A DNA stretch of 64,000 nucleotides from Patescibacteria group bacterium (GTDB taxonomy: Bacteria > Patescibacteriota > WWE3 > JAMCXX01 > JBBTUG01): positions 6,701 through 70,700 of the forward strand of contig JBBTUG010000006.1 in the NCBI GenBank assembly GCA_038063895.1. Reading direction: 5' to 3'. Shown here piece after piece: positions 1,471 through 64,000 of this stretch (positions are counted from its first letter, which is position 1; the number at the start of each line of letters is the position of its first letter). Position numbers and translations under genes: made by a program. The notes under the pieces are model-generated. The model did no database searches. It had not been told where the DNA came from and saw only the letters and a list, made by a program, of their open reading frames with translations.

Positions 1471-1480
1471 GAGACGAAAA

Positions 1481-5237: not shown

Positions 5238-5239
5238 GT

Positions 5240-7206: not shown

Positions 7207-7210
7207 ACAG

Positions 7211-8344: not shown

Positions 8345-8369
8345 TATCCTTCTGTCAGTTGCTTCAACG

Positions 8370-9002
8370 ATGCTTATGATCGGGCGTAGTTACGAAATTG
8401 CTAAGCGGGTGACGGACATTATTATTTCTTTAATATGTTTTCTGTTACTTTCTCCGCTGTTCCTGGTTGTTAGTGTTTTAATTAAGCTGGACGACGGCGG
8501 TAAAGTGATTTATTTCCACGACCGCTGCGGCCGGGGACGGAAAACTTTCCGTCTTTATAAATTCCGTTCAATGGTTGAAAATGCCGATGATCTTCTTTTT
8601 TCGGATCCGAAGTTTCTGGAGCAGCTCCGTAGCGGGGTCCACAAAATTCCGAACGATCCGCGGATTACCCGGATCGGTAAGTTCATCCGGAAATACAGTA
8701 TTGATGAGCTGCCGCAGTTCATCAACGTTTTAAAGGGGGATATGAGCGTGGTCGGACCCCGGGCCTATCGGCCGGACGAGATGCAGAAGTTCGAGCAGGA
8801 CTGCCCCCAGATGGCGGGGGAAATTAACGATATTATGTCAGTCAAGCCGGGGATTACCGGTCTGTGGCAGGTCAGCGGCCGTTCAAAAATACCTTTCGAA
8901 AAGCGGGTCGTAATGGAAGCTTTCTACGCCCGGAAGAAATCGTTGGTCTTAGATTGGATTATAATGTTGAGAACGCCCCTGGCGATTATTGAAGGAGTCT
9001 AG
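8370..9002 (+). CDS. Small monotopic phosphoglycosyl transferase (bacterial sugar transferase, PglC/WbaP C-terminal-domain type); initiating enzyme
   Basis: 'KRVTDIIISLICFLLLSPLFLVVSVLIKLDDGGKVIYFHDRCGRGRKTFRLYKFRSM...DELPQFINVLKGDMSVVGPR' are hallmark motifs of polyprenyl-phosphate hexose-1-P transferases. Confidence 0.7.
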   Translation: MLMIGRSYEIAKRVTDIIISLICFLLLSPLFLVVSVLIKLDDGGKVIYFHDRCGRGRKTFRLYKFRSMVENADDLLFSDPKFLEQLRSGVHKIPNDPRITRIGKFIRKYSIDELPQFINVLKGDMSVVGPRAYRPDEMQKFEQDCPQMAGEINDIMSVKPGITGLWQVSGRSKIPFEKRVVMEAFYARKKSLVLDWIIMLRTPLAIIEGV

Positions 9003-9004
9003 CG

Positions 9005-29680: not shown

Positions 29681-30835
29681 ATGAAAGAAATGGAAAACGA
29701 AAAGAAAAACATCGGAGTAATATTTGGCGGAATGAGCGCCGAATGCGAGGTATCTTTAGCAACGGGGAGATACGTTTACTCGCTGCTAAATAATAAAAAA
29801 TTTACCGGAACGCCATTTTATTTGGATAAAAAAGGCACTCTTTGGCAGGTTCCAGACAAACTGGTAATCCAAAATACGACGACGGATATCGAGCAGCGCC
29901 TGGAGAAGGACGCGAGCCGGGTAAATTTCGAGGACCTTCCCGGGAAAGTCAGCTGTGTTTTTAATGCGCTGTTGGGCAAGTACGGCGAGGATGGCTGTTT
30001 TCAGGCGATCTTGGAATTGTTGAAAATTCCTTACACCGGTTCAGGAATTCTCGCTTCCGCGTTGGGGATGGATAAAAAAGTCCACAAGAAAATGCTCTCC
30101 GGGGCGGGGTTTTTAGTGGCCAAAGATCTATTAATTCGTAATTCGGAATTCGATATTCGGAAAGTTACGGAAAAAGTTTCCAGGGAAATCGGTTTCCCCT
30201 GCGTTGTGAAGCCGACCCGGGAAGGTTCAAGTATGGGAGTGTCGGTGGTTAAAGAAGAAAAGGGTTTGGAAACAGCGTTCGAGTACGCCTTTAAGTATGA
30301 TCAGGAGGTTCTTGTCGAAGAGTATCTGAAAGGGATGGAGTTTACCTGCGTGGTTTGGGGCAACGACGATCCGAAAGCTATGCTCCCTACCGAAGTCGTG
30401 TTCGAGGGCGATTTTTTTACGTATGAAGGTAAATACATGCCGGGAAAAACCCAGACGATTACGCCCGCCCGGCTTTCGGAAGAGGGCTTGGCCGAGATAC
30501 AGCGCCAATCCGTGGCGATTTATCAGCTGATTGGTTGCCAGGGCTATGGCCGGGTTGACGGCTTTGTCGTTCCTAAGACCCTAAAGGTCGGGGAGCCCAG
30601 ACCTTTAGGGTCTTTGAGTTTGTCTGATATCTCAATTTACATCGCTGAGCCGCACACGGGAACAATTATGGTTCCTTCGTCTTTCGTTTTTCAACAGGCG
30701 GCGAAGTTCCGGATTGATCTGTCCACAGAATTCCATGGAAAAAAAGGTTCGATTCCGATGACCCCGCGCATTTTGGTAACAAAAATTATTGAGTTAGCCT
30801 TCGAAGCGTTTAGCAATAAGAAAGGATTATTATGA
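29681..30835 (+). CDS. ddl: D-alanine--D-alanine ligase (paralog 1; Lys-Tyr retained at the K215/Y216-equivalent position)
   Basis: ATP-grasp motifs 'FPCVVKPTREGSSMGVS' and 'FFTYEGKYMPG' (K at 30431-33, Y at 30434-36). The C-terminus is extended by a repeat insertion. Confidence 0.8.
   Translation: MKEMENEKKNIGVIFGGMSAECEVSLATGRYVYSLLNNKKFTGTPFYLDKKGTLWQVPDKLVIQNTTTDIEQRLEKDASRVNFEDLPGKVSCVFNALLGKYGEDGCFQAILELLKIPYTGSGILASALGMDKKVHKKMLSGAGFLVAKDLLIRNSEFDIRKVTEKVSREIGFPCVVKPTREGSSMGVSVVKEEKGLETAFEYAFKYDQEVLVEEYLKGMEFTCVVWGNDDPKAMLPTEVVFEGDFFTYEGKYMPGKTQTITPARLSEEGLAEIQRQSVAIYQLIGCQGYGRVDGFVVPKTLKVGEPRPLGSLSLSDISIYIAEPHTGTIMVPSSFVFQQAAKFRIDLSTEFHGKKGSIPMTPRILVTKIIELAFEAFSNKKGLL
30577..30612 (+). 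repeat. 36-bp palindromic element, copy B (in-frame inside ddl paralog 1)
   Basis: Perfect 13-bp arms 'gaccctaaaggtc'/'gacctttagggtc' with loop 'ggggagccca'. It encodes KTLKVGEPRPLG. Confidence 0.85.
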
Positions 30836-31884
30836 GCGGCATATTAAGAATTGGTTTATTTATCGGCGGGCTGTCTTCGGAAAAGGAAATCTCTTTGGAA
30901 TCAGGGCGTCACGTCTACAACAGTCTTGACCGGGAAAAGTATGAAGTTCTTCCGATCTTTGTCGATAATGAAGCCCATCTTTGGGAGATTGAGGAGGGGT
31001 TGCTGTGGAAAAATACCACCACAGATCTTAAAGATGCCCTCGGTAGCGGGGGAAGCCGGGTTTACTACGAAGATTTAAGAAATAAGATTGATTTTGCTTT
31101 TATTTGCCTCCACGGAAAATACGGCGAGGACGCCTTCCCGGGACTTTTTGAGATACTGGGAATTCCCAACAACGGCGCCTCCGTTTTGGGAGGAGCATTG
31201 TCAATGGACAAATACCGCCAAAGGATGGTTTTGCAGGCGGCTGGGATCGATACTCCAAAGTATTTTCCAATCGAAAATTCCAAGTTCCAAATTCCAAATT
31301 CCAAAATATTTGATGAAGTAGAAGCTGTGTTAAGTTACCCGGTAATGGTGAAGCCGTCGCGGGAGGGAAGTTCAACCGCACTGCATAAGGTGAATAACCG
31401 GGGAGAACTTGAAGCCGCACTTTCCGATGCCTTTATTTACGATAAAGTCGCCTTGGTCGAGGAAGTTTTGGTCGGAACGGAGTTAACGACATTGGTTTAT
31501 GGCGAAGGCGAAAATATTAAAGCCCTGCCGCCATCGGAACTTCTCCGGGGAGGGGATTTCCTTACCGCCCAGGAAAAATTTCTGCCGGGTGGGGCGCAGA
31601 TGATAACCCCGCCGCGGCTACCTGTGGAAGTAGTTGAGGAGGTAAAGAGAGCAGCGGTGAATACGTTTCAGGCGTTAAGTCTTAAGGTCTATAGCCGGAT
31701 CGATTCATTTTACGTTCCGGGTCGGGGAGTGGTAATTTTGGAGCCGAATAACCCGCCGGCGATGACGCCCTCGACGGCTTTGTGGCTTGAGGCTGCCGAA
31801 GAAAACCTTAACGCTTCCCAATTGTTAGATGATCTGATCCGTATCTCCCTTGTCCTCCACGCCGCCAAACTCGGCCCACTTTAA
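30832..31884 (+). CDS. D-alanine--D-X ligase (Ddl paralog 2; Phe replaces Tyr at the Y216-equivalent position)
   Basis: 'YPVMVKPSREGSSTA' and 'FLTAQEKFLPG' (F codon at 31579-31581). About 350 aa. Confidence 0.75.
   Translation: MSGILRIGLFIGGLSSEKEISLESGRHVYNSLDREKYEVLPIFVDNEAHLWEIEEGLLWKNTTTDLKDALGSGGSRVYYEDLRNKIDFAFICLHGKYGEDAFPGLFEILGIPNNGASVLGGALSMDKYRQRMVLQAAGIDTPKYFPIENSKFQIPNSKIFDEVEAVLSYPVMVKPSREGSSTALHKVNNRGELEAALSDAFIYDKVALVEEVLVGTELTTLVYGEGENIKALPPSELLRGGDFLTAQEKFLPGGAQMITPPRLPVEVVEEVKRAAVNTFQALSLKVYSRIDSFYVPGRGVVILEPNNPPAMTPSTALWLEAAEENLNASQLLDDLIRISLVLHAAKLGPL
31278..31306 (+). repeat. Heptanucleotide tandem repeat (ttccaag/ttccaaa x4) inside the ddl paralog 2 coding sequence
   Basis: Seen directly. 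It encodes 'KFQIPNSKIF'. The unit length is not a multiple of 3. Confidence 0.7.
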
Positions 31885-33913: not shown

Positions 33914-35383
33914 TTATCTATAAATATCAGGGAGGTCGTTTTCGAAGAGGATCAGAGAGTTGGGTTTGACTAATTGCGGGATTATCTCTTTGGTTGCCTG
34001 ATCGAGGGAGTCAGTGATGAATAATCTCTGACCTATTGTTCCGTTGTTCCATTGTTTCATTGCTGTGGCGTTGCTCCAGCCGCCTTCTCTAATTCCTTGC
34101 AGAAGGGCTGCACGGTTGGTTTTGTTGACGATCACGGCGTAATCAAAATTTTCGGCAATCAGTTCTCCTAACTTTTTATTCTCTTCGAACTGCTGTTTTC
34201 CCAATTCCACTATTCCCGGAGTCACTATTATTTTTGGGTAGTTGGGTAAACGGGTAATCAGTTTTATTGCGGCCCGGGCGCCCTCCGGGTTGCTGCTGTA
34301 GGCGTCATCAATTATTAACGAGTTTTCGGGGCCGTGGATTAGTTGTAAGCGGTGTTCCGGTGGGCTGACCTTGAATAGGCCGTGCCTTATTTCCTCTTCA
34401 GTTAAGCCTAAATATGTTCCTACAGCAATAGCCGCCAGGGCATTGCTGACGTTGTGGTCTGCCGGGAGGTTGAGGGTGTAAGTGTCTTGTTTTACCCTGA
34501 ACTCGGAGGATTCGGGAGAGGATGAAATAATTTCCGCCTGAAGATCGGCTTCAACTCCGTGCGGTTTGCTAATCCGGGAGTAACCTACTTTATTTATTAT
34601 AGTTTTTAGATAGAGTTCTACGCATGGTTGGGAGTACAGATTGAAAACCGCCAAGCCCTCCTCCGGAAGGGATTGAATCAATTCCGATTTAGCTTCCACG
34701 ATATTTTCCAAACTCCCGAACCGCTCCAGGTGCTGATTAGTTATTCCGGTGATAATCCCGATTTTAGGTCGAACCATCCGGCAGAGTTCCGCAATCTCGC
34801 CTTTTTTGTAGGCGCCCATTTCGACGATAAAGACTTCGTGCTCCGGCTTTAATTTCATATTGATGATACCGGCTATGCCGAAAAGCGTATTGTAGCTTTT
34901 TGGAGTCGCCAAAACTTCGTACTTCGTTGCGAGAACAGTTGCTAGGATTTCCTTCACCGTGGTTTTGCCGTAACTGCCGGTAATTCCGATGACCAATAGG
35001 TTTTTGTGTTCCGTGATAATTTTTTGGGCACGGAGAACCGTCCGGCGGCGGTTGATGATTTCGTATGGCCGGAGAACTAGTAAAGATATTAGAAGTAACG
35101 GCTGGGGGAACAGCTGAAGAAGAATAACGATAATTACACCCTTAAGGTCAAGGCTCCCCGACCTTAAGGGTGTGGCCCAGGGCTGAAATAGAAATATGGG
35201 AGCTAGGCTGAGGGCAGTGGCGCATATGAAAAGAAACCTGGCCTTCGAAGTCCACACCAGCGCCTTTTTCTTTTCCAGTCCTAAACGGAACAAATTTTGA
35301 ACGGTCCATTTAATGAAGCGGACTAGGTCGTATTCCAAAACCTGCAGGGCGTAAAGCTGGTTGTAAAGCGGGATGTACCTCAT
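33914..35383 (-). CDS. murF: UDP-N-acetylmuramoyl-tripeptide--D-alanyl-D-alanine ligase, with an N-terminal hydrophobic extension containing a repeat insert
   Basis: 'LLVIGITGSYGKTTVKEIL' P-loop and 'IGIITGITNQHLERFGS'. The start is set at Met 'MRYIPLYNQL' (35383) because the longer ORF overlaps the upstream hydrolase gene. The two genes overlap in an ATGA arrangement. Confidence 0.85.
   Translation of the reverse strand: MRYIPLYNQLYALQVLEYDLVRFIKWTVQNLFRLGLEKKKALVWTSKARFLFICATALSLAPIFLFQPWATPLRSGSLDLKGVIIVILLQLFPQPLLLISLLVLRPYEIINRRRTVLRAQKIITEHKNLLVIGITGSYGKTTVKEILATVLATKYEVLATPKSYNTLFGIAGIINMKLKPEHEVFIVEMGAYKKGEIAELCRMVRPKIGIITGITNQHLERFGSLENIVEAKSELIQSLPEEGLAVFNLYSQPCVELYLKTIINKVGYSRISKPHGVEADLQAEIISSSPESSEFRVKQDTYTLNLPADHNVSNALAAIAVGTYLGLTEEEIRHGLFKVSPPEHRLQLIHGPENSLIIDDAYSSNPEGARAAIKLITRLPNYPKIIVTPGIVELGKQQFEENKKLGELIAENFDYAVIVNKTNRAALLQGIREGGWSNATAMKQWNNGTIGQRLFITDSLDQATKEIIPQLVKPNSLILFENDLPDIYR
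35137..35172 (+). repeat. 36-bp palindromic element, copy C (in-frame inside the murF N-terminal region)
   Basis: Perfect arms 'cacccttaaggtc'/'gaccttaagggtg' with loop 'aaggctcccc'. It encodes PLRSGSLDLKGV in murF. Confidence 0.85.
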
Positions 35384-36105
35384 AAAATAAATTCCGAGAT
35401 TAATTTTGCGACCAGAGCCGGTTGTTCTATAAACGGGAAATGGCCGCACTGCGGGATAATTTTTAAGACCGAGTTTTTTATTCCCCTTTTCATAATCGCC
35501 GCGTCGCGGATGGGAGTTTCGGGATCTTCCTCGCCCCAAATAAGTAACGTTGGAGCCGCAATATTGCTCAACTTAGTCCGAAGGTCCTCTTCCACAATTA
35601 TAGCCATTGTCGCCTTCATCGGACCGGCGGCGCGGTAATCTTCCGATTGGAAGGATTTTGCCAGAGGTTTTTTAATAAATTCGGGAGAATTCGAAAAAGC
35701 TTTCGACATTAGAAGTTTCGTTTGGGTGAGGATGTCGCGGCGGCGGATTCCCGCGCTGTCAATCAAAATCATTTTCTTTACTCCGTTATATTCCAGCGCG
35801 TAGGCGAGTGCAATTTTCCCGCCAACCGAGTGTCCCAATAAAATGGGTGATTCGATTTCCAGTTCCTTAAAAAATTGATTTAATAAGGCGGCGTAATCGC
35901 GGCTGGAAAAAGGGGTTGCCGGAACCGAGCTTTCTCCGAAACCGGGCAGGTCCAAAAAGATCATTTGGAAAGGGAGCGCCGCGAGGTAAGGTTTTAAACT
36001 TTCCCAAATCTGCAGATTAGCTCCCCACCCGTGCAAAAAAACAATTTGTTCTCCGCGCCCGTAAACCTCGAAGTTGATATTCAGTCCCTTGATTGAGATG
36101 TTCAT
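35380..36105 (-). CDS. Alpha/beta-hydrolase fold protein
   Basis: 'VFLHGWGANLQIWE' and the nucleophile elbow 'GHSVGG'. 241 aa. Confidence 0.7.
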   Translation of the reverse strand: MNISIKGLNINFEVYGRGEQIVFLHGWGANLQIWESLKPYLAALPFQMIFLDLPGFGESSVPATPFSSRDYAALLNQFFKELEIESPILLGHSVGGKIALAYALEYNGVKKMILIDSAGIRRRDILTQTKLLMSKAFSNSPEFIKKPLAKSFQSEDYRAAGPMKATMAIIVEEDLRTKLSNIAAPTLLIWGEEDPETPIRDAAIMKRGIKNSVLKIIPQCGHFPFIEQPALVAKLISEFIL

Positions 36106-52437: not shown

Positions 52438-53016
52438 CTAATATTTTGCGTGAGCGATAAATGAAAAACTGTTTGGCGGCCAAAGGCGAACAAGACTGCG
52501 GCCGATAATTTCGCTTTTGGTTACCGCGCCCCATGTTCGGGAATCGGAGCTAACCGCGCGGTTATCACCGAAGACGACGTAGGAGTCCGCCGGGACCGTG
52601 TATTTCGTTTGATTTGGCATTGCGGTTTTACCTTCGGTGACCATTCCTGGTTCGAGATAGTCCTCTTTCAACTGGTAGCCTTGGGGATGGGTGGCATTAT
52701 AGATATAGACTTTTCCGTCACTAATCGTGACGCTCTCTCCCGGCAGACCGATCACTCTTTTAATGTAGTCGCGGTGTGGCGGCTCGGGAGATTTGAAAAT
52801 AATAACGTCGCCGCGTTGCGGATTTCTAAAGCGGTAAGTAACTTTATCGGTCAGGAGATATTCGCCATTTTTAAAATCCGGCAACATCGAGTTGCCGTAG
52901 ACCTCGTGCAACTGGGCAACAAAGACGTTCACGACGATAAAGAGCGCGAACGCCAAAACGACGGTTTCGAGGATATCGCTGATAAAGAGATAAAGGTCGT
53001 GAAATATTTTTTTCAT
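52438..53016 (-). CDS. lepB: Signal peptidase I
   Basis: 'YGNSMLPDF', 'RGDVIIFKSP', 'KRVIGLPGE' and 'VFGDNRAVSSDSR'. The start is trimmed to MKKIF to avoid the tRNA. Confidence 0.8.
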   Translation of the reverse strand: MKKIFHDLYLFISDILETVVLAFALFIVVNVFVAQLHEVYGNSMLPDFKNGEYLLTDKVTYRFRNPQRGDVIIFKSPEPPHRDYIKRVIGLPGESVTISDGKVYIYNATHPQGYQLKEDYLEPGMVTEGKTAMPNQTKYTVPADSYVVFGDNRAVSSDSRTWGAVTKSEIIGRSLVRLWPPNSFSFIAHAKY

Positions 53017-53020
53017 AGGC

Positions 53021-53097
53021 TTGGTGCGCATGCCTGGAATCGAACCAGGGACCTCTACGATGTGAACGTAGCGCTCTAACCATCTGAGCTACATGCG
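53021..53097 (-). tRNA. tRNA-Val (anticodon CAC), CCA encoded
   Basis: Reverse complement folds as a cloverleaf: acceptor GCGCATG/CATGCGC, D-arm GCTC-AGATGGTTA-GAGC, anticodon stem CTACG with loop TTCACAT, T-arm CCTGG-TTCGATT-CCAGG, discriminator A, then CCA. Confidence 0.85.
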
Positions 53098-53117
53098 CTT
53101 AAGAATAAATGGTGTCA

Positions 53118-53140
53118 ATGAAACAATGAAACGATGAAAC
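53118..53140 (+). repeat. Tandem 'ATGAAAC' octamer-spaced repeat (x3) forming overlapping mini-ORFs (MKQ, MKR, MKP...)
   Basis: 'atgaaacaatgaaacgatgaaacc'. Each TGA stop overlaps the next ATG (ATGA). Confidence 0.6.
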
Positions 53141-53224
53141 CATTCTCCCCTGTAGAATTATAATTCCCCTTCCGTATTAACTCAACCCGAAAATCGGCGG
53201 ATTTTGCTATAATTTTGAAGAATA

Positions 53225-54514
53225 ATGAACCTTCGCGTTAAAAAAGTGGCCGGGAATACGTTGTTCCAATTAGCTGGAAAGGCGGTTTCAATCACCTGTT
53301 CGCTGCTGGCGACGGCGTTAATTACCCGCCGGTTTGGTGAGAATGGCTACGGCCTGTTTGCCCTAATGACGACTTTCGCCGCCTATTTCTACCTGGTGGT
53401 GGATTTCGGCATTAATGCCATCGTGATCCGGGCGGTGACGGAAAATAAGGAAAAGATCGCCGATTACTTCCGCAACCTCTACACTTTCCGTTTTTTGTTC
53501 TCTTTAGTTATCTTTTTAGTTGTTCTTTGCCTTCTGCCCCGGATTAATTTTAAAACCTCCGAACTCAGTCTTGTCCGGTGGGGGATTGCGATCAGTTTAT
53601 TTACGGTTATTTCCCAATCCCTTTATATCTCCGCCAACGCGATCTTCCAAAAAATATCCCGCTACGATCTTTCCAACCTCGCCTTAACCGCCGGAAATAT
53701 TCTGGCCCTACTGCTGACCCTTCTCTTCCTTTTCCTAGGCAAAGATTTGCTGTGGATGGTAGGGGCGACGGTAGTGGGAGCCTTTTTGTCCGTGGCTTTT
53801 TCCTTTGCGCTGATCCGGCCTTTCGTGCACTCCCTTCGGCCGTCGTTCGAGACGAAAGTGTGGAAAGAAATATTACTGCCGTCCTTGCCGGTAGGACTGG
53901 GGCTAATCACGATGGTGATTATGGCCAAGACGGATATGTTTTTGCTCTCAACAATTACTTTGCCCTCAGCTTTGGGCTATACTAACGGCCAGGCTTTAGG
54001 CTTCTACGGTCTGGCCTACAAAGTTTTTGAGACCGCCCTGGTTTTCCCGACCTTCTTTATCAACGCCCTCTACCCGTTACTCTTGGAGGATCATTTTTCC
54101 GACCGGGAGAAACTTAAAAACACCGTGAAGAAATCGGCTCTGTTTCTCTTTCTCATCGGGCTGGTGGCAGCTATTGTAGGCATTATTTTCGCCCCCTTTG
54201 CTATTACGGTTCTGGGTGGGAGCCGTTTCTTACCCGCCGTCGCGCCGCTGCAAATTCTCCTGCTGTCGCTGCCGATCTTCTTTCCTTCGGCTCTGTTTGT
54301 CTGGCTGTTAGTTACGCTAGGGCGGGAAAAATATCTGCCCTTAATTTACGCGTTCGGATCCGTATTTAATATCGCCGGCAATCTGTATTTTATTCCCCGT
54401 TACGGTTTTCTCGCTTCCGCGTGGCTGACCGGAATTACGGAAGTAATTGTTACCGTTTTGACGGCCTATTTATCTTTAAAAATACTTTTTGCCAAGGAAG
54501 GTTCCCGTGCTTAA
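53225..54514 (+). CDS. wzx: Polysaccharide flippase (Wzx/MOP superfamily)
   Basis: 429 aa with about 12 TM segments. The N-terminus 'LRVKKVAGNTLFQLAGKAVSITCSLLATALITRRFGENGYGLFAL' is a polysaccharide_synt signature. An extended -10 'TGcTATAAT' at 53205-53213 suggests a leaderless transcript. Confidence 0.7.
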   Translation: MNLRVKKVAGNTLFQLAGKAVSITCSLLATALITRRFGENGYGLFALMTTFAAYFYLVVDFGINAIVIRAVTENKEKIADYFRNLYTFRFLFSLVIFLVVLCLLPRINFKTSELSLVRWGIAISLFTVISQSLYISANAIFQKISRYDLSNLALTAGNILALLLTLLFLFLGKDLLWMVGATVVGAFLSVAFSFALIRPFVHSLRPSFETKVWKEILLPSLPVGLGLITMVIMAKTDMFLLSTITLPSALGYTNGQALGFYGLAYKVFETALVFPTFFINALYPLLLEDHFSDREKLKNTVKKSALFLFLIGLVAAIVGIIFAPFAITVLGGSRFLPAVAPLQILLLSLPIFFPSALFVWLLVTLGREKYLPLIYAFGSVFNIAGNLYFIPRYGFLASAWLTGITEVIVTVLTAYLSLKILFAKEGSRA

Positions 54515-55427
54515 TCCCCTGATATCCATTGTTATTGCCTCAAGCCGAAAAGATAGGAATAAGCTTTCGGCGTGTTTGGATTCCATTTACAAGGGATCTT
54601 TTCCGGCTGCTTCTTTTGAAGTTATTGTTGTCGACAGCGGGGCGGGGGACGAGGCAAAAGATTATCTTTTGGAGACAGCGAAAAGTCGCCCCAACCTTGT
54701 GCCTGCCTTTCCCGGCTTTGGTAATATCGGTCCGGCGCGGGCGCGAAATATTGGGATTAAGCTGGCCAAGTCGTCCTTGGTGGCTTTCACAGATGATGAT
54801 ATTTCGGTTGATCCGCAATGGCTGGAAAAGATTACTAAGGCTTTTCTTGAGCATCCCGAAGTGGCCGCTGTTGGCGGAATGACTTTGCCCCCGGACTCCT
54901 TGAGGCGAAATCCGTTTGCCGAATACGAATCGTCTATCTACCAACGCTATCTGAAAAATGGTTGCGCGGGCAGTTACTTATCAACGACGCGGGACGAGCA
55001 CCCGGTATTTACCGGCAATATTGCTTATCGGAAGGAGGTTTTAGAAAAAGCCGGGGGTTTCAGCGAAAATTTTCCGCCTTTTGTCTATGGGGAAGATGGG
55101 GATTTAAAGGAACGGGTGCTAAAAATGGGCGGCCGGTTTTTGTACATCGACTCGGTAAATTACCACAATACGGAGTACAGTCTCGCCAGCTTTTGGCAAA
55201 AAGAGGAGAAACGGGGGGCGGGGATTTTGCGCTATCGGAAAGACCACTACGGGACGTCTAGGCTTACACCTTTAAGATCGGGGAGCCGTGACCTTAAAGG
55301 TGTTTTGCATATGGTTATGAACTTAATACACCTTAAAGGTGTAAAAAATATTATGGGTATGTTTATTCTGGGTTTGGCGGTTGTCGCCCGACAAGTGGGG
55401 AAAATTCGTTACTATGGAAAAGTCTAA
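54489..55427 (+). CDS. GT2 family glycosyltransferase (3' end altered by palindromic-element insertions)
   Basis: 'ISIVIASSRKDRNKLSACLDSI...FEVIVVDSGAGDE...AFTDDDISVDPQW'. The C-terminal roughly 50 aa are encoded by repeat copies F and G. Confidence 0.6.
   Translation: MPRKVPVLNPLISIVIASSRKDRNKLSACLDSIYKGSFPAASFEVIVVDSGAGDEAKDYLLETAKSRPNLVPAFPGFGNIGPARARNIGIKLAKSSLVAFTDDDISVDPQWLEKITKAFLEHPEVAAVGGMTLPPDSLRRNPFAEYESSIYQRYLKNGCAGSYLSTTRDEHPVFTGNIAYRKEVLEKAGGFSENFPPFVYGEDGDLKERVLKMGGRFLYIDSVNYHNTEYSLASFWQKEEKRGAGILRYRKDHYGTSRLTPLRSGSRDLKGVLHMVMNLIHLKGVKNIMGMFILGLAVVARQVGKIRYYGKV
55267..55342 (+). repeat. 36-bp palindromic element copy F (55267-55302) plus a solo arm G (55329-55341), in the 3' end of the GT2 ORF
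   Basis: Arms 'cacctttaagatc'/'gaccttaaaggtg' with loop 'ggggagccgt'. A solo 'caccttaaaggtg' follows. Together they encode TPLRSGSRDLKGV...HLKGV. Confidence 0.8.
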
Positions 55428-56538
55428 AATTCTTTTTACCGACCATACTCCTTTCGTCGGTGGGGCGCAGCTGGCGCTTCTCCGTCACCTCCGGCACCTG
55501 TCTCGGGATCGGTATACCCCTTTCGTTGCCTGTTCCGACGCGGTTCCTCTGTTTGTTGAAAAGTTACGGGCGGCTGAAACTGCAACCACGATTTTAGCCT
55601 TTCCCAAATTGAAGTTACTCGGTCTCCCGTCAGTAGCTAACCTCATTAAAATCACTTGGGAGCTTTGTATAATAATCCGGAAGGAAAAGATTGACGTTAT
55701 CGTAGCCAATACTGAGCGGGCGGCCTATCCGTCTCTTTTGGCGGCGAAACTAACTGGCCGGCCGTTTATTTTGTGGGTTCGGGATTTTGAGTACGGGCAG
55801 AAGATGTTTGCCTTCTTGGCATTTTTTAGTTCGGACGTGGTTTTCGTTTCCCGGGCCCTGAAAAATTATTATCACAGTGATAAGGGACACGTTGTTTATG
55901 TCGGCACCGAAGTACCGCAATCCACTACAACCGCTGATACAACCCATTACCCCCTGATTCACATCGGCTTCGCTGGTCGGCTGGTCGCCTGGAAAGGCGC
56001 GCAAGTCCTAATTGAGGCGGCCCGGTTGCTGAAAGAGGAGAACTTTCTTCCCGGTGGCTGGCAGATAGTTATTGCCGGCTCGGGGGAAAATCAGGCGGGG
56101 TCGAATGAGATGGAGCTTCACCAAATGGTGGAAAGAGGGGGTTTGCAGACTGTTATTAAATTTTCCGGTTTTAGAGAACAGATGACTGAGTTTTACGAAT
56201 CACTGGACATTTTTGTCCACCCGTCAATTAAGCCCGAACCATTCGCTACGGTAGTCGTGGAGGCGATGGCCTTGGGGCTTCCGGTTGTAGCGAGTAACGC
56301 CGGGGGAACGCCGGAAATAATAAAGGACGGGGAAAACGGCTTCCTCTTTCCGAGCGGAGACGCCCAATCTCTCACGGGACAGCTGAAAATATTATTATTG
56401 GATAAGGAGTTACGGAAAAGAATTGGGGAGAATGCGCGCGAAACTGTGCACTCGGAATTTACGGAAGAGAAGGTGACCGGGCAGATGGAAACTATATATG
56501 GAGAGGTTCTCCCCGCCGGGTGGCGGATCGAACGGTAA
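55414..56538 (+). CDS. Glycosyltransferase family 4
   Basis: 'HPSIKPEPFATVVVEAMALGLPVVASNAGGTPEIIKDGENGFLF' is the GT4 E-x7-E region. The start is set at MEKSKILF. Confidence 0.7.
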   Translation: MEKSKILFTDHTPFVGGAQLALLRHLRHLSRDRYTPFVACSDAVPLFVEKLRAAETATTILAFPKLKLLGLPSVANLIKITWELCIIIRKEKIDVIVANTERAAYPSLLAAKLTGRPFILWVRDFEYGQKMFAFLAFFSSDVVFVSRALKNYYHSDKGHVVYVGTEVPQSTTTADTTHYPLIHIGFAGRLVAWKGAQVLIEAARLLKEENFLPGGWQIVIAGSGENQAGSNEMELHQMVERGGLQTVIKFSGFREQMTEFYESLDIFVHPSIKPEPFATVVVEAMALGLPVVASNAGGTPEIIKDGENGFLFPSGDAQSLTGQLKILLLDKELRKRIGENARETVHSEFTEEKVTGQMETIYGEVLPAGWRIER

Positions 56539-56547
56539 TTAGTGGCT

Positions 56548-56575
56548 ATGAAACAATGAAACAATGAAACCATGA
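56548..56575 (+). repeat. Tandem 'ATGAAAC' repeat (x3) forming three overlapping mini-ORFs (MKQ*, MKQ*, MKP*) whose last TGA overlaps the ATG of the downstream gene
   Basis: 'atgaaacaatgaaacaatgaaaccATGAgaatt'. ATGs at 56548, 56556, 56564 and 56572, with a TGA overlapping each next ATG. Confidence 0.6.
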
Positions 56576-57750
56576 GAATTACTAAGGCATTTCTCTACAT
56601 TTTTATTTTATCGCTGACCCTTGGACAACTGGGCAGTTACCGGTTTGGGGAGGGTGTGGTTTATATCTCGGATTTACTGCTGGCGGCTTTAATCGTCATC
56701 TGGCTGCTGGAAAGTTTTTTGGTTATCCGTTCCTTAAGACTTGAGCGTAAGGGGATTTTTATCTTTTTGTTCGGGGTGGTTTCCCTCCTAACCCTTCTTA
56801 ATGCCACCAGGTTTTTCAGCTCCGCCGAAATTATTACTGGCAGTTTGTACTGGTTCCGTTGGGTCGCTTATGCGCTTGTTTATTTCCTGGTTCGGGATTT
56901 AATCACCAAAGGAGAAAAGATTCGTGAGCCGATCATATTTCTTTTAATTGTTGACGGCCTTTTTCTGGCTCTGTCTGGTTTTATCCAATTGGCGGTTATT
57001 CCGGATTTCCGCCTCCAGGCGGTGGAATCAGGCTGGGACCCACACAAAAACCGTCTGCTTTCGACCTTTTTCGACCCGAATTTTACCGGGGCTTTTTTGT
57101 CTTTAACTTTGAGTTTAGTCATCAGCCGGCTTTTTTCGCCGGGGCGAAAATTGCTCTACGTTGTGGCTTTACCAGTTCTTCTATTAGCCCTTCTCCTAAC
57201 CTTCTCCCGCAGTGCCTGGCTGATGTTCGGCGTGATTATCCTGGTCTTCGGCCTTCTCCGTTCCCGTTGGCTCTTATTGCTCGCCGTTTTTCTCGCTTTC
57301 TCCGCCTACTTTTTCGTGCCCCGGGTGCAGACCCGACTTTCGGGGGTAACGGATCCGGCCGATTCCGCTCACTTTCGGCTCATCTCGTGGAATAATACTT
57401 TGAAAATCGCCGGCGACTATCCGCTCAGTGGCGTCGGGTTTAATCTTTTCCGCTACGCCCAGGCTGATTACGGCTTCTTCGGTTTTCGCGATCCCTCGGG
57501 AGGGCACGCCGGGGCCGGTTCCGATTCCAGCTGGCTTTTGGTTCTCGCTACCACCGGTGTTTTCGGGTTTCTAATTTTCAGTCTGCTATATTTACGTCTT
57601 TTATTGGAAAGCTGGAAGGCTCGAGGCACTGTCGTTGGTTTGGCGCTTCTGGCGGCTTTAGCGGGATTAGTAGTCGAAACCAACTTCATCAATGCTCTTT
57701 TTTATGTGCCCATAATGTCATGGGTCTGGCTTGTGGCAGCGCTTCTATAA
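56572..57750 (+). CDS. O-antigen ligase/polymerase-like (Wzy_C family) membrane protein
   Basis: 392 aa and polytopic. 'LTFSRSAWLMFGVIILVFGLL' and 'YPLSGVGFNLFRYAQADYGFFGFRDPSGGHAGAGSDSSWL' are Wzy_C-like. Confidence 0.6.
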   Translation: MRITKAFLYIFILSLTLGQLGSYRFGEGVVYISDLLLAALIVIWLLESFLVIRSLRLERKGIFIFLFGVVSLLTLLNATRFFSSAEIITGSLYWFRWVAYALVYFLVRDLITKGEKIREPIIFLLIVDGLFLALSGFIQLAVIPDFRLQAVESGWDPHKNRLLSTFFDPNFTGAFLSLTLSLVISRLFSPGRKLLYVVALPVLLLALLLTFSRSAWLMFGVIILVFGLLRSRWLLLLAVFLAFSAYFFVPRVQTRLSGVTDPADSAHFRLISWNNTLKIAGDYPLSGVGFNLFRYAQADYGFFGFRDPSGGHAGAGSDSSWLLVLATTGVFGFLIFSLLYLRLLLESWKARGTVVGLALLAALAGLVVETNFINALFYVPIMSWVWLVAALL

Positions 57751-58233
57751 GTCAAAATTCAAAAATGTCTCCTGTCATCCTGAGGAGTCAACGACGAAGG
57801 ATCTCTGACCTTGTGTCAGGCTTTCAACTGATTCCAATCTCAATAAAATCCGGGTTAGTTTCTTGAATTAGTCTCATCTTTTTTTGTCTGGTCCATCCTT
57901 TTAGTTCTTTCTCTCGCGCTATGGCTTCAAGCGGGTTGTTGTAATTTTCAACGTATATCAGTTTGTTAATGTTGTATCTCTTTGTAAATCCATCAACCTT
58001 TTTATTTTTGTGCTCCCAAATTCTTCGGCTAAGATTACTTGTTATTCCGATGTAAAGTGTTGCGGATAGGTTGGTGAGGATATAGACATAGAACGTTTTG
58101 TCCATTTAGTTAAGTTTAAGCACTAGGACGCCCATTCGGGCGAGATCCTTCCCTTCCTTCGGCCCTTGGCGAAGTCCGGTCAGGATGACTTAAAGTCACT
58201 TTTTAATTTTGAATTGAACTTTTGAATTTTGAC
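57751..58233 (+). mobile_element. Candidate small inserted unit: GIY-YIG gene bounded by compound inverted repeats (14-bp outer 'GTCAAAATTCAAAA', 10-bp inner 'GTCATCCTGA')
   Basis: The outer inverted repeat lies at 57751-57764 and 58220-58233 as its reverse complement. The inner repeat lies at 57774-57783 and 58180-58189. 'TTTTGAC' tandem repeats occur at the right end. Confidence 0.3.
57824..58105 (-). CDS. GIY-YIG nuclease domain protein (93 aa)
   Basis: 'FYVYILTNLSATLYIGITSNLSRRIWEHK' contains the GIY...YIG motif and the conserved Arg/Glu. Confidence 0.7.
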   Translation of the reverse strand: MDKTFYVYILTNLSATLYIGITSNLSRRIWEHKNKKVDGFTKRYNINKLIYVENYNNPLEAIAREKELKGWTRQKKMRLIQETNPDFIEIGIS

Positions 58234-58253
58234 TTTTGACTTTTGAATTAGTC

Positions 58254-59090: not shown

Positions 59091-59690
59091 ATGGTCAAAT
59101 TAGTGAATCAGACAATATTTACTGCTCTATTAAAGGAGAAACAGCTCCTAACCTTTACGGCGGCGGACATCTGCGCTCTTTTCGGAGTCAGCGCGGTGGC
59201 AACAGCAGGGTTACTCAACCGCTACACAAAAAGAGGACTTATTCTCCGGATAAAACGGGGGTTTTACGTGTTGGCCGAGGCTTTACCGCCCGATGTTTAC
59301 CTCGCAAATAAAATTTACAGCCCTTCATATATCTCGCTCGAATTTGCATTGTCGTATCACGGGGTTATTCCCGAGACCGTTTACGAAATTACTTCGGTTA
59401 CGACGAAGGCCACCCGTCGGCTGGAAACCCTGGGAAAGGTATTTTCTTATCGGAGAATTAAGAAGTCTGCGTATACCGGGTATGGGACCGAGAAACAAGG
59501 TACAGCCAGTTTTTTTATCGCCGACGCCGAGAAAGCTTTCGTGGATACAAATTACTTCCGGATAATAAACGCGCAGGAACCCTTATCCCGGTTTCATAAG
59601 GATAAAATCAACCCCGAAAAAGCCTTATACTACGCAAAACTGTTTAATAACCTGAAATTGACCAGCATTATTAAAACAACCCTTCAATGA
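59091..59690 (+). CDS. abiEi: Type IV toxin-antitoxin / abortive-infection AbiEi-family antitoxin (transcriptional regulator)
   Basis: 'RGLILRIKRGFYVL...SPSYISLEFALSYHGVIPE' is an AbiEi_4 signature. The gene overlaps the downstream AbiEii. Confidence 0.7.
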   Translation: MVKLVNQTIFTALLKEKQLLTFTAADICALFGVSAVATAGLLNRYTKRGLILRIKRGFYVLAEALPPDVYLANKIYSPSYISLEFALSYHGVIPETVYEITSVTTKATRRLETLGKVFSYRRIKKSAYTGYGTEKQGTASFFIADAEKAFVDTNYFRIINAQEPLSRFHKDKINPEKALYYAKLFNNLKLTSIIKTTLQ

Positions 59691-60451
59691 TTAATATTGA
59701 AACACTTGAAAAATTAGCGCGGCAGACTCAGACTAGTGTGTTTCCGAACGTTGTTCGTGAGTATTTTCAGCACGTATTTTTGGCCGAGCTTTACAGGTTA
59801 CCGGAGGCGGGGCGAATCCTTTTTAAAGGTGGTACGGCGCTTCGCGTGGTTTATAACAGTCCGCGTTTTTCGGAGGATTTGGATTTTTCCCTTTTTAGTA
59901 CTCCTTTAAAAAAGGTTACCTCTTTCGTTGAGGACTTATTTGTCCAAGTATTAACTGAGATGGAAAATGCCGGAATAAGGGTTGAACTCGGCGATAAACT
60001 CGGATCGACCAGTGGGGGATATTTTGGTCTGGCCACTTTCCGTATGTTTGAATACCCATTGATCAGTGTGGAATTGAATGTATCGGCGCGAAATATCAGG
60101 GACGTAATTGGGGAAATTGACAGCGTAGCGAACAACTTTGTACCCACCTATACAATTATGCATCTGCCGCAAAAAGAGATCGTTGAAGAAAAAGTTTTTG
60201 GGGCGCTTCGGGATCGTAAAAAACCCCGGGATTTCTACGATTTATATTTTATTATGCGCAGTAACCTTCTTTCCCACGACCAAAAAAAACGATTATCCGG
60301 ACTAAAAGAGCAGATAGTTAGGGATGCAAAAGCTATTAATTTTCGCACCGAGCTTGGGGTATTTTTACCGGCGGATCAGCAGGCGATTATCCGTGATTTT
60401 CCCGCAACACTTGCGCGCGAGCTCAATCGACAGTTAAGCACTTTGAGTTGA
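59687..60451 (+). CDS. abiEii: AbiEii/AbiGii-family nucleotidyltransferase toxin (DUF1814)
   Basis: 'LFKGGTALRVVYNSPRFSEDLDFS' is the NTase motif. Confidence 0.75.
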   Translation: MINIETLEKLARQTQTSVFPNVVREYFQHVFLAELYRLPEAGRILFKGGTALRVVYNSPRFSEDLDFSLFSTPLKKVTSFVEDLFVQVLTEMENAGIRVELGDKLGSTSGGYFGLATFRMFEYPLISVELNVSARNIRDVIGEIDSVANNFVPTYTIMHLPQKEIVEEKVFGALRDRKKPRDFYDLYFIMRSNLLSHDQKKRLSGLKEQIVRDAKAINFRTELGVFLPADQQAIIRDFPATLARELNRQLSTLS

Positions 60452-60502
60452 TAATGGCTGTAAATTATTGACAATATATAATAAGTACGTTATAATGTAC
60501 GT

Positions 60503-60865
60503 ATGGATACTAAAACCACCCTCTCGATCTCCCAAGCCCGCAAAGTCATTTTTTCAATCGCCGAAAAAGTCCAAAGGCCTGGCGCTTACTACACTCTGAC
60601 TGAAAAAGGCCGACCGAAGGCTGTCGTTATGTCGGCGCAGGAATTCGAAAATTGGCAAGAGACTCTAGAGGTAATGCAGGAATTTCCGGATTTAAAAAAG
60701 GATATTGTCGAAACGGAATCGGCTGTTAAAAGCGGTGAATACAAAAGCTGGACGACTTTGACGACCCTTTTGGGCCGGGAAGGCTTCGTTGTCGCCGAGA
60801 ATACTCCGAAAAGGTATGCAGTTCCAACTACGACTAAAACCAAGCGCGCAAAAAGAGTTAGATAA
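60503..60865 (+). CDS. Phd/YefM-family type II antitoxin
   Basis: 'ISQARKVIFSIAEKVQRPGAYYTLTEKGRPKAVVMSAQEFENWQETLEVM'. Confidence 0.65.
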   Translation: MDTKTTLSISQARKVIFSIAEKVQRPGAYYTLTEKGRPKAVVMSAQEFENWQETLEVMQEFPDLKKDIVETESAVKSGEYKSWTTLTTLLGREGFVVAENTPKRYAVPTTTKTKRAKRVR

Positions 60866-61067
60866 ACTGGAGAAAACAGCCCGTTATAAGGTTCTGGCGG
60901 CTTTTTCGGAAATCGCTAAGGACCCTTTTGTCGGGAAGAAATTGGAAGGGGAGTTTCGCGGCTGCTACTCTTACCGGGTTTGGCCTTTTAGGATTATTTA
61001 CCTCATCTACAAAAAAGAGCTCCTCGTTCTCGTTATCCGCATCGGTCACCGCCAAGGCGTTTATTGA
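60816..61067 (+). CDS. RelE/ParE-family type II toxin
   Basis: 'FRGCYSYRVWPFRIIYLIYKKELLVLVIRIGHRQ'. The start is set at MQFQ and overlaps the antitoxin 3' end. Confidence 0.65.
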   Translation: MQFQLRLKPSAQKELDKLEKTARYKVLAAFSEIAKDPFVGKKLEGEFRGCYSYRVWPFRIIYLIYKKELLVLVIRIGHRQGVY

Positions 61068-61107
61068 TATATTTTCAGGTCATGCGGTAATATTTAAGAA
61101 CGGAGGT

Positions 61108-61911
61108 ATGACGGAGAACATCTTTGAGAAAATCAAGAATATTAATGAATACGGGCAGGAATTTTGGAGCGCCCGTGATTTGTATAAATTACTTGGTTAC
61201 ACCGAATACGGGAAGTTTCTTCCGGCTATAGAGCGGGCAAAGGAAGCCTGCAAAAACAGTGGGCAGGGTGTAGAGGTGCATTTCGCTCACCTGAGCGATA
61301 TGGTTCCCATTGGCTCCGGAGCCGAAAGGTCTGTTGAAAATTTCTCTCTTTCCCGCTATGCCTGTTACCTTATCGCCCAAAACGGTGATCCGCGGAAAGA
61401 AGAGATTGCCAGGGCGCAGACTTATTTTGCGATCCAAACTAGGCGCCAGGAGGTGCAGGAACTGCAAATTGAGGACAGCAAACGCGTATTTCTGCGGGAT
61501 GAGATGAAGGAACACAATAAGGAATTGGCCCAGGCGGCCAAATCCGCTGGTGTTATTAACCATGCCAATTTTCAGGACTTCGGATACATGGGACTTTACG
61601 GGGGTTTAAGGCAAAAAGACATTCATTCCAAGAAGAAACTTAATAAAACTGATGCAATTTTAGACCATATGGGAAGTGAAGAACTCGCGGCTAATCTATT
61701 CCGGGCCACGCAAGCCGCGGCTAAACTTAAGCGGGAAAATATTTTCGGCCAGAGAAATGCCAGCCTGGCCCACTTTAATGTTGGGAAGAAGGTCCGTCAG
61801 ACAATTAGAGAATTGGGCGGCACGATGCCGGAGCATTTACCAACCCCGGAAAACGTAAAAGAATCTAGAAAGCGCCTTAAAAAATCCCCAGGAAAGTTAT
61901 TGTCAACTTAG
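61108..61911 (+). CDS. DinD-like DNA-damage-inducible protein (BRO-N/KilA-N-type N-terminal domain)
   Basis: 'YGQEFWSARDLYKLLGYTEY...SRYACYLIAQNGDPRKEEIARAQTYFAIQTRRQE' matches the DinD family. A strong RBS 'aacggaggt' precedes the ATG at 61108. Confidence 0.5.
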   Translation: MTENIFEKIKNINEYGQEFWSARDLYKLLGYTEYGKFLPAIERAKEACKNSGQGVEVHFAHLSDMVPIGSGAERSVENFSLSRYACYLIAQNGDPRKEEIARAQTYFAIQTRRQEVQELQIEDSKRVFLRDEMKEHNKELAQAAKSAGVINHANFQDFGYMGLYGGLRQKDIHSKKKLNKTDAILDHMGSEELAANLFRATQAAAKLKRENIFGQRNASLAHFNVGKKVRQTIRELGGTMPEHLPTPENVKESRKRLKKSPGKLLST

Positions 61912-62116
61912 TTAATCTCCCAGCCAATTACCCTAGCAAAGAAACAACCTGCCTCGCTGGTCATCGACTCTGAGGCTCAGACTCGAAGAGCAGGCGGGTG
62001 AAGCAATTCTGCAACCCAACTCGAAATATGAGGGGGAAAGGGGTAGAATTATAATAGGCTTAGGAATTCAAAATCATTTTCAAATGAGGTTGGTATTGTT
62101 AGCATGGTCAACTATA

Positions 62117-64000
62117 TGAATACAATATTTGAACAACTTACAGATTTATTAAAAAAAGACGAGCGCCTTGTTTCGCAAGACGACGTATTGTTGAAAAATC
62201 AAACACAGGAATTGGCGCGCAAGAATGATCCGGCGCTCTTAAAACTTTTACTTTCCGACAAAACGATAAAACAGCACTTCCTTTTTGAGGTAGAAAAAAC
62301 GCTGATTTTTGATAAAGAAAAGTTTGTCCGCTTTATCTCCAACAAACAATTTTTGCCGGATTCTTATACTGCTTTCAAAAACAAAATTGGTTTAACTGCT
62401 GGTGATGAGTATGTGAGCGAAAACAAAGAAGTGGTTTTGGTATGGCCTTACAAAGACTGTGTTTTGGAAGGCGGAATGACAAAAGAAGATCAAAAAAGAG
62501 ATGAGATTTTTTATAACGAAACATTAGCGCCGGACGACATCAATCGCTTGCTTGACGCCAAAGTTTTTACCAATTTTAAGCGGTTAGACAAAAAAGGCGA
62601 ACACAAGCTGGACGGTTTCAAGCGCGATGAAAAAGGCACGATTAAAGATAATTTGATTATTAAAGGCAATAACCTACTCGCGCTCGCTTCGCTCAAAAAA
62701 GAATTCGCCGGAAAAGTTAAACTGATTTATATTGATCCGCCGTATTATTTTTCTGAAAAGAAAGATGGAGATACCTTTGCGTATAATTCAAATTTCATAC
62801 TTTCTACCTGGCTAGTTTTTATGAAAAATCGGTTAGAAATTGCCAAAAAACTTCTAGACAAGGAAGGTTCAATATTCGTGCAGATCTCTGATGATGGGGC
62901 TTCTTATTTAAAATTACTAATGGATCAGGTTTTTGGCGTAGAAAATTTTGTAAATGTTATTAGTGTCAGAATGAAAAATATTGCTGGCGCGAGTGGTGGT
63001 GGTGAAGATAAAAAATTAAAGAAAAACATTGAGTTTATATATATTTATTCTTGCAATGAATCTTATTTCAAACCTTTTAATAATATTTACGATTACAAAG
63101 AATTATATGAAGTGGTACAAGAATACAAAGAAAATGAAGTGAGTTGGAAGTACACCTCTGTTTTGTATGACGAGGGTTCAAAGAAATATATAGCACTAGC
63201 AAAAGATGGCGATGGGAATGATATTAAGATATATAAAAGAGTAAATCCTATTTTTAAATCAGTAAATCAAATATCAAAAGAAGAGAAAATATCAGAAAAG
63301 GATGCATATTATAAGTATTCGGATAAAATATATACAACAGCAATGCCGCAGAGTTCTATTAGATTAAGAGTCATGGATGTTCTAGGAGAAAGGGTTAATG
63401 ATGCTGATTTATTTTCAATTGAATATGTCCCGAGGAGTGGAAGAAATAAAGGTAGACCTTACGAACAATTTTATAAAGGTGAAAAACTCAGACTTTTTTC
63501 TTGGCTACGAGATGTTTCTGTGAAAAAAGATGGATTAATTCTTAAAAAAGAATTACAGGGTACATATTGGGACGGATTTAATTTAAACAATCTATCAAAA
63601 GAAGGGAGAGTCCAATTAGAGAATGGGAAAAAACCAGAAGCTTTGCTCCGGAGAATAATTGATATGGCGACAGAAGAAGGCGAAACTGTTTTGGATTACC
63701 ATATTGGTTCGGGGACAACTTGTGCTGTGGCGCACAAAATGGGAAGAAAATACATTGGAATGGAGCAAATTGACGATCAAATGAATAAATCCATAGAAAG
63801 ACTTCATAATGTAATAAACGGAGATGATAGTGGTATATCAAAATCAGTGGATTGGAAGGGAGGAGGAGATTTTGTATATATGGAACTTGCCAAGTGGAAT
63901 GAAGAGTGGATTGAAAAAATTGAAAAAGCTAAGACCGGAAAAGAACTTGCCAAACTTTGGGATGAGATGAAAGAAACCGCCTTTTTAAGCTACAAAGTAG
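62117..64000 (+). CDS. Beta-class DNA N6-adenine/N4-cytosine methyltransferase (Type III Mod-like), 3' truncated by the window end; AT-rich (horizontally acquired)
   Basis: Motif IV 'KLIYIDPPY' lies upstream of motif I 'VLDYHIGSGTTCAVAHKMGRKYIGME'. The frame is still open at 64000. GC content is markedly lower than in the rest of the window. Confidence 0.65.

Follow-up and report, generated by a model that had tools for sequence, protein, structure and literature searches.

Coupling of neighbouring genes through ATGA or 1-nt overlaps of stop and start codons has been described by Huber et al. 2019 (PMC6728339) and Huber et al. 2023 (PMC10666635), and each step of the ladder of minimal open reading frames (ORFs) analysed here is likewise ATGA. 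In that kind of coupling the overlap joins genes, whereas here the overlaps link 3-codon ORFs made by a repeat, and the real upstream gene stops 9 nt short of them. Very short ORFs lying just 5′ of a gene are also found among uORFs, minigenes, and start-stop elements (lambda bar; retapamulin ribosome profiling, bioRxiv 10.1101/520783), and such elements can capture ribosomes. Those are single and usually conserved or SD-driven, whereas the triple in our window is generated by a repeat and is absent from relatives. A further parallel is offered by the 7-bp repeats of H. influenzae hmw1A/hmw2A (PMC8262952, PMC12721329), which likewise lie 5′ of a gene for a surface structure and occur at two loci. 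Compared with the hmw repeats, the array in the window has three units only, is unable to shift a reading frame, and has one copy that probably lies in a tRNA leader; no copy-number variation was seen here in five assemblies, which represent one clone. The feature itself falls into known kinds, namely simple sequence repeats and ATGA-coupled ORFs, and we know of no described chain of minimal ORFs that acts as a relay.

The window, by which we mean the whole stretch of 64,000 nucleotides that was analysed, comes from an uncultured Patescibacteria (CPR) bacterium from Hainich groundwater. The array at the junction of its GT4 and wzy genes (array 2 in the following) is, in our reading, a recent 8-bp microsatellite confined to this lineage and sitting in a duplicated 38-nt segment, and the ladder of mini-ORFs that it carries would be a tolerated by-product, possibly a useful one. 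We put the probability of this reading at about one half.

The array and its operon

The sequence of array 2, at 56548-56575 on the plus strand, was confirmed as ATGAAACAATGAAACAATGAAACCATGA, that is, ATGAAACA ATGAAACA ATGAAACC followed by ATGA, and Tandem Repeats Finder describes it as 3.5 copies of a period of 8 with 95% matches. An earlier note on this DNA had claimed three mini-ORFs here, the last of which would overlap the start of the wzy-like gene with its stop codon. Both points are borne out by the sequence, which contains three overlapping 3-codon ORFs encoding MKQ (56548-56559), MKQ (56556-56567), and MKP (56564-56575), each closed by a stop codon. The TGA of the third (56573-56575) forms a -4 overlap with the wzy ATG at 56572, and the mini-ORFs overlap one another in the same way. 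The GT4 stop codon TAA occupies 56536-56538, with the first ATG of the array 9 nt on and the wzy ATG 33 nt on.

Array 2 is real and a chance origin is excluded. When the two-unit pattern ATGAAACNATGAAAC was searched for with at most one mismatch, the window gave 5 matches vs a mean of 0.04 in dinucleotide-preserving shuffles (n = 100), and not one of the 100 shuffles reached 5. The matches fall at three sites: array 2, a sister array (array 1) at 53118-53143, and, on the minus strand, a degenerate stretch (34060-34035). The lone heptamer ATGAAAC shows no enrichment in the window (13 matches vs 10.2 expected). The ladder of mini-ORFs comes automatically with the repeat, because an 8-nt unit containing ATGA always gives ATG-NNN-NNA-TGA together with an ATGA overlap, and its geometry therefore provides no evidence of design beyond the repeat itself.

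Genes near the arrays were assigned by Pfam scans. Four of them are co-directional on the plus strand, namely a wzx-like flippase gene, which is the first of the operon (53225..54514), a GT2 glycosyltransferase gene (54507..55427), the GT4 glycosyltransferase gene (55414..56538 from the gene-caller start, the mechanical ORF beginning at 55381), and wzy (56572..57750), which encodes a 392-aa Wzy_C protein (O-antigen ligase/polymerase-like; MRITKAFLYIF...). This wzx-GT2-GT4-wzy order is common to the window and two relatives (L128 and L218), and we infer that the four genes are co-transcribed. The start of wzy at 56572, as proposed in the earlier note, stands: ten homologues have the same aligned Met, within the motif M[KR][LIFV]T, and the gene callers agree on it.

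On the minus strand lie the gene for tRNA-Val(CAC) (53022..53098), whose 5′ end is 20-45 nt from array 1 with array 1 upstream of it, and an S26 signal peptidase gene (52438-53031; Pfam scan). The mechanical start of the S26 ORF (ATG 53031-53029) falls inside the 3′ end of tRNA-Val; as Pfam matches the protein only from residue 19 onwards, its real start codon probably lies further downstream. Another large glycosylation cluster, ~50 kb upstream (window 34-10849 plus L220 1-10000), includes several GT4 genes, two DUF2079, PMT_2, Bac_transf, and an 853-aa Wzy_C (2676-5237), which brings the Wzy_C genes of this genome to two or more.

A sister array and the history of the junction

Both arrays are part of a 38-nt direct repeat on the plus strand. 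Copy 1 (53106..53143) contains array 1, which reads ATGAAACA ATGAAACG ATGAAACC AT (53118-53143), and copy 2 (56536..56573) consists of TAATTAGTGGCT, the array, and CCAT, its first three bases being the GT4 stop codon TAA. The copies are 87% identical, with a start-to-start distance of 3430 nt. Between them, the non-repeat flank matches at 8/12 positions (P = 0.003) and the array at 25/26. The array is thus better kept than the flank (1/26 vs 4/12 mismatches, Fisher P = 0.027), which fits homogenisation of the repeat and also fits selection on the array as a DNA element. Given the likeness of both flank and array, independent slippage at two seeds is unlikely, and a short templated, microhomology-guided copy between the sites is the simplest account. 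The final C of the third unit and the next CAT are ancestral at site 1 (the divergent tRNA-Val/wzx spacer), as seen in the relative L217, so that a transfer from site 1 to site 2 is slightly favoured. No further copy of the 38-mer was found in ~80 kb of the genome, including 15.7 kb of extra flanking sequence, and a metagenome scan with the 26-mer returned 5 matches, none of them with the flanks of the window 38-mer; a dispersed 38-mer element was rejected on these two grounds.

Direct repeats of 26-38 nt that bracket exactly wzx-GT2-GT4 might also serve as a recombination substrate, permitting deletion of this 3.4-kb block or marking its rearrangement. We consider this highly improbable, as the order tRNA-wzx-GT2-GT4-wzy is ancestral (L128, L218), GT4 is upstream in all contigs carrying this wzy, and a nearby recombinase gene is absent. 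An attachment site beside the tRNA was rejected as well, with the array on the 5′ side of the tRNA, integrase absent, and the gene order ancestral.

Contigs of relatives were fetched via Wzy and Wzx homologues. Identity to the window is 88% in Wzy and 77-81% at the nucleotide level for L126, and the Wzy identity is 70% for L127 and 58% for L128 and L218. In 4/4 of these relatives the TGA of GT4 directly overlaps the ATG of wzy (ATGA), and the array is absent from the GT4-wzy junction of each. Their wzy genes begin with ATGAAACT(C/T)ACT, ATGAAATT, or ATGAAATTTACC, so that the unit of the repeat is identical to the first 7 nt of the ancestral gene. Relative to L126, ~64 nt have been added at the junction in the window, made up of a longer, unrelated GT4 tail (GEVLPAGWRIER), the new TAA stop, the 9-nt spacer, and the three units. 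By alignment, the segment 56500..56547 (plus strand), which carries this GT4 tail and ends in the 9-nt spacer, is a lineage-specific replacement of the ancestral junction; two small GC hairpins, GGAGAggtTCTCC and CCGCCgggtGGCGG, lie within it. A blastn-short search against the window gave nothing convincing as the source of this 48-nt non-repeat part of the insertion, which includes the 36 nt of new GT4 tail.

In L217 (Wzx 73%), one lone ATGAAAACCATT at site 1 aligns with the third unit of the window, in a proto-repeat that reads ...ATAAAACA ATGAAAAC CATTATCCC..., with CATT after ATGAAAAC. Nothing resembling the array is present at site 1 in L218 and L128. From this absence or proto state in the relatives it follows that both arrays are recent and lineage-specific, and that they were seeded on pre-existing ATGAAAC-like sequence.

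The promoter of wzx is probably marked by an extended -10 box, TGCTATAAT (53205..53213, plus strand), which the alignment places 11 nt from the start of the gene and which is kept as TG(C/T)TATA(A/C)T, 10-11 nt before the ATG, in all four relatives. Array 1 is ~65-90 nt upstream of this core promoter, and its last ORF on the plus strand, MKPFSPVEL and a stop, ends ~57 nt before the wzx ATG. The suggestion that array 1 couples translation into wzx therefore fails, and since the array is not placed for such coupling, the motif as such is no dedicated translational device. On the minus strand a promoter-like site (TTGAGT-17-TATAAT, 53157..53185, 10/12 matches) faces the tRNA, and the L217 spacer, read by eye, has the same tRNA-facing layout. 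Judged from these promoter motifs, array 1 probably lies inside the pre-tRNA-Val leader. We also noticed that a 13-mer, GTAGAATTATAAT, occurs twice, at 53152-53164 and 62043-62055, and that in both places a plus-strand gene begins 50-60 nt downstream of it (wzx and a type III methylase gene at ~62104, respectively); it holds the palindrome AATTATAATT, which is readable as a -10 box on both strands.

A short tandem repeat at the 5′ end of a surface-glycan gene is the classical setting of phase variation. Array 2, with its period of 8 and 3.5 copies immediately 5′ of such a gene, and the several other 7-9-nt tandem repeats in the window, would suit a contingency locus, in which gain or loss of units by slipped-strand mispairing switches or grades the surface-polysaccharide gene. 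A change in unit number cannot, however, shift the frame of GT4 or wzy, because the array sits after the stop codon of the one and before the ATG of the other and each unit has its own start and stop, nor can it alter the promoter spacing of wzx, because array 1 is upstream of the whole core promoter. Three units are found at both sites in 5/5 assemblies (five runs), which are consensus sequences of one clone; being 100% identical over up to 12 kb, they make a weak test of variation. Overall, a contingency locus appears very unlikely.

Translation into wzy

An SD-like motif was found for 7/45 genes, and wzy is without one. Co-directional neighbours are often tightly packed, with 20/37 pairs no more than 10 nt apart; the 4-nt ATGA overlap occurs in six pairs and the 1-nt overlap in two. 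A TAnnnT hexamer stands exactly 6 nt before the ATG of six genes, for example at 19630 (minus strand), 59091 (plus strand), and 60503 (plus strand), and at the 59091 ATG it forms part of TTGACA-17-TAACAT, which ends 6 nt before the start codon. This peak of TAnnnT suggests that leaderless or near-leaderless mRNAs are probably common here, and the genes seem to be translated either via tight coupling or from promoters abutting the start codon. A literature search for leaderless mRNAs or SD use in Patescibacteria found no paper. An alternative code in which TGA is not a stop was rejected, as TGA ends ORFs at the six -4 overlaps and ORF lengths are normal.

The same TAnnnT peak (six genes) is one of the observations that would agree with a shared DNA-level cis element, the 38-nt module being an operator or promoter before both wzx and wzy. 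Others are the near-identical pair of copies in one operon, the better conservation of the array than of its flank between the copies, and the situation of wzy, which lacks an SD-like motif and no longer overlaps GT4 by ATGA. In one variant, the unit junction TGAAACAAT at 56557-56565 could act as a weak extended -10-like element (TGn + AACAAT) from which a leaderless wzy mRNA would start at 56572. The TG, the A at -11, and the T at -7 are present, the latter exactly 7 nt before the ATG of the next unit (a 6-nt gap, as in those six genes), but position -12 is A instead of T, the likely -10 boxes picked by eye here all begin with TA, and no -35-like hexamer was found on reading the sequence. The relatives have either no module or a single unit, so it is not a conserved regulatory site. 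In addition, the site-1 copy precedes the conserved wzx -10 box by 65-90 nt and lies on the side that the tRNA promoter would transcribe, and the presence of only two copies in ~80 kb speaks against a cis element or an iteron set. A cis element of this kind is, in our view, unlikely.

Reporter experiments in E. coli and Haloferax found hardly any termination-reinitiation coupling left at an intergenic distance of ~20 nt (PMC10666635), so a bare 33-nt gap should uncouple wzy. The GT4-wzy pair, at +33 nt, has neither a 4-nt or 1-nt overlap nor a very short gap.

Under our preferred reading of a recent microsatellite, both sites would already have borne an ATGAAAC seed, ATGAAACT in the wzy start region and the proto-repeat ATAAAACA ATGAAAAC in the spacer. 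Replication slippage at one of the sites most likely expanded the repeat, which may then have been copied to the other in a short templated or microhomology-guided event. At the junction, the new sequence has put a 33-nt spacer in place of the ancestral 4-nt ATGA stop/start overlap. Ribosomes finishing GT4 might restart at the first AUG, 9 nt downstream, and three successive termination-reinitiation steps would hand them on to the wzy AUG. Such a relay would keep part of the coupling that the relatives get from direct overlap.

In a genome with few SD sites and frequent 4-nt overlaps, where coupling should matter, a termination-reinitiation relay into wzy is plausible. What counts against it is its first step, in which ribosomes would have to re-initiate over 9 nt with no SD site to help. 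Very short ORFs tend to lose peptidyl-tRNA by drop-off, as in the lambda bar minigenes, and the upstream AUGs could equally be decoys that lower wzy expression. A microsatellite that is merely tolerated is somewhat more likely than a true relay. If the relay is true, the repeat would be a simple repair of translational coupling after an insertion breaks an overlap, relevant to bacteria without SD-driven initiation, in the form of a small and testable element. If the microsatellite is only tolerated, it carries a caution, namely that start/stop ladders follow automatically from ATGA-containing 8-nt repeats and that their recurrence is repeat background.

Octamer arrays elsewhere and other repeats in the window

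Arrays of at least three units of ATGAAACN were found at 120 or more loci in many phyla in a scan of species-representative genomes. Among the matches listed, Bacteroidota are the commonest phylum, especially Saprospiraceae, with Clostridia, Kiritimatiellia, and CPR also present, and the arrays have 3-20 units. In viral contigs, three-unit arrays of ATGAAACN occur at 10 loci, vs 35 and 38 for the control octamers ATCAAACN and AAGTAACN, the two controls being composition-matched and counted in viral contigs only. With the controls commoner in viral contigs, we take the wide recurrence to be the usual background of A-rich microsatellites, and recurrence was rejected as evidence for function. The motif does recur beyond these loci, as the earlier note required, in many phyla, but only in the trivial sense of a repeat that is rarer than control octamers in viral contigs.

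Among the matches listed, 16/129 arrays coincide exactly at their end with the ATG of an ORF that has 100 or more codons, and seven of those 16 follow a co-directional ORF at a distance of no more than 60 nt. A great many genes begin with ATGAAA (Met-Lys), and such array ends are to be expected if slippage often sets in at these starts; the search pattern, moreover, selects ATG-containing repeats. The arrays in other phyla have the same unit as the window but differ in context, which may be a gene start, a gene 3′ end (L214), or inverted MITE-like ends (Clostridia). In L214 the array comes directly after the stop codon of a gene that, by eye, we take to resemble NadA, in a convergent spacer where no gene starts.

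The earlier note had expected the last stop codon of the array to couple wzy translation to leader-peptide termination. The wzy start, the stop overlap, and the SD-poor, overlap-rich genome agree with this; conservation, the sister array, and recurrence do not. The stronger form of the idea, dedicated regulatory leader peptides that tune wzy translation (e.g., by sensing tRNA or release-factor supply), draws on the ATGA-overlap geometry, on the same SD-poor, overlap-rich genome, and on the arrays among the matches listed that end on a long-ORF ATG (16/129, seven near a co-directional ORF). Its difficulties are that the array is not kept in any relative examined, that the ladder is automatic for an 8-nt unit with ATGA, that the sister array lies outside a translated context, and that the octamer is not over-represented relative to the controls in viral contigs. 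The encoded peptides are only MKQ and MKP, with no sensing feature. The RNA of array 2 is not more stable than shuffled sequence (z = +0.63), the region being unstructured, and Rfam gave zero matches at array 1 or array 2, even at E up to 1. We regard dedicated leader peptides as distinctly unlikely, and the ladder is best seen as no dedicated leader-peptide device.

A more general proposal would be that tandem AUGA octamers form a stepping-stone relay, passing a post-termination ribosome along a chain of minimal ORFs to starts that are otherwise too distant, arising repeatedly by slippage at ATGAAAC starts in SD-poor bacteria (CPR, Bacteroidota) and being kept for operon coupling; we hold it to be unlikely.

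Several of the loci in other genomes have features of their own. In Clostridia/Oscillospiraceae MAGs (L011, L020, L062, L032, L012, and L042), a ~130-150-nt element occurs in both orientations, bounded by the inverted octamer arrays (ATGAAACT)n and (AGTTTCAT)n and enclosing two conserved hairpins (GGTGTCCCTTCGGGACGAA and TTTTCCATATC..GATATGGAAAA). The element resembles a MITE or a small RNA gene, and no Rfam family match to it was found. The Saprospiraceae loci (L036, L116, L119, and others) have 17-20-unit ATGAAACC arrays, with many arrays per genome and mixed variants ATGCAACC and ATGAAGCC; in L036, 20 units lead straight to the ATG of a 258-codon ORF. Divergent arrays pointing outwards from a short centre are present in L008, L045, and L079. 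A full-text literature search for the repeat sequence returned no paper.

Within the window, the degenerate third stretch (34035-34062, minus strand) reads ATGAAACA ATGGAACA ACGGAACA with a period of 8, lies in frame in a MurF-like ORF (33914-35539), and encodes MKQWNNGT. A recent insertion into MurF was rejected here: the peptide (A/T)M(K/E)QWNN(G/K)TI is kept in the 70-71% homologues P0124 and P0125, and the stretch is therefore coding sequence and no recent array. The peptide is not kept in the 76-79% homologues P0122 and P0123. Two adjacent D-Ala-D-Ala ligase paralogues have 7-nt tandem repeats within the coding sequence near codon 150, TAATTCG x3 and AAATTCC x4.4, at 30132-30162 and 31275-31305, respectively, and resemble the ATGAAAC arrays in being paired, similar short repeats in neighbouring genes.

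A ~500-nt insertion (57751-58253) separates wzy from a Glucodextran_B-like gene. It contains a 93-aa GIY-YIG nuclease ORF on the minus strand (57824-58105, Pfam E = 2e-15), and its flanks consist of a 16-nt inverted repeat without mismatches (57749-57764 and 58220-58235), the hairpin arms GTCATCCTGA/TCAGGATGAC, and a TTTTGAA/TTTTGAC heptamer array of 7 copies (58200-58249). L128 lacks the insertion and has a 36-nt spacer instead, whereas L127 has DNA that matches the GIY-YIG region. Each of the four Logan contigs of the strain ends at 57821, inside the insertion, which suggests a multi-copy or polymorphic mobile cassette. Further downstream of the glycan operon, a defence/mobile-gene island, absent there in L128, extends over 59091-64000 and into L222 up to 19242. 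Its genes include AbiEi/AbiEii, a Phd/YefM antitoxin, two BRO-N, a type III methylase, a D12 methylase, a ResIII/HI_1054 helicase, and a PD-(D/E)XK protein.
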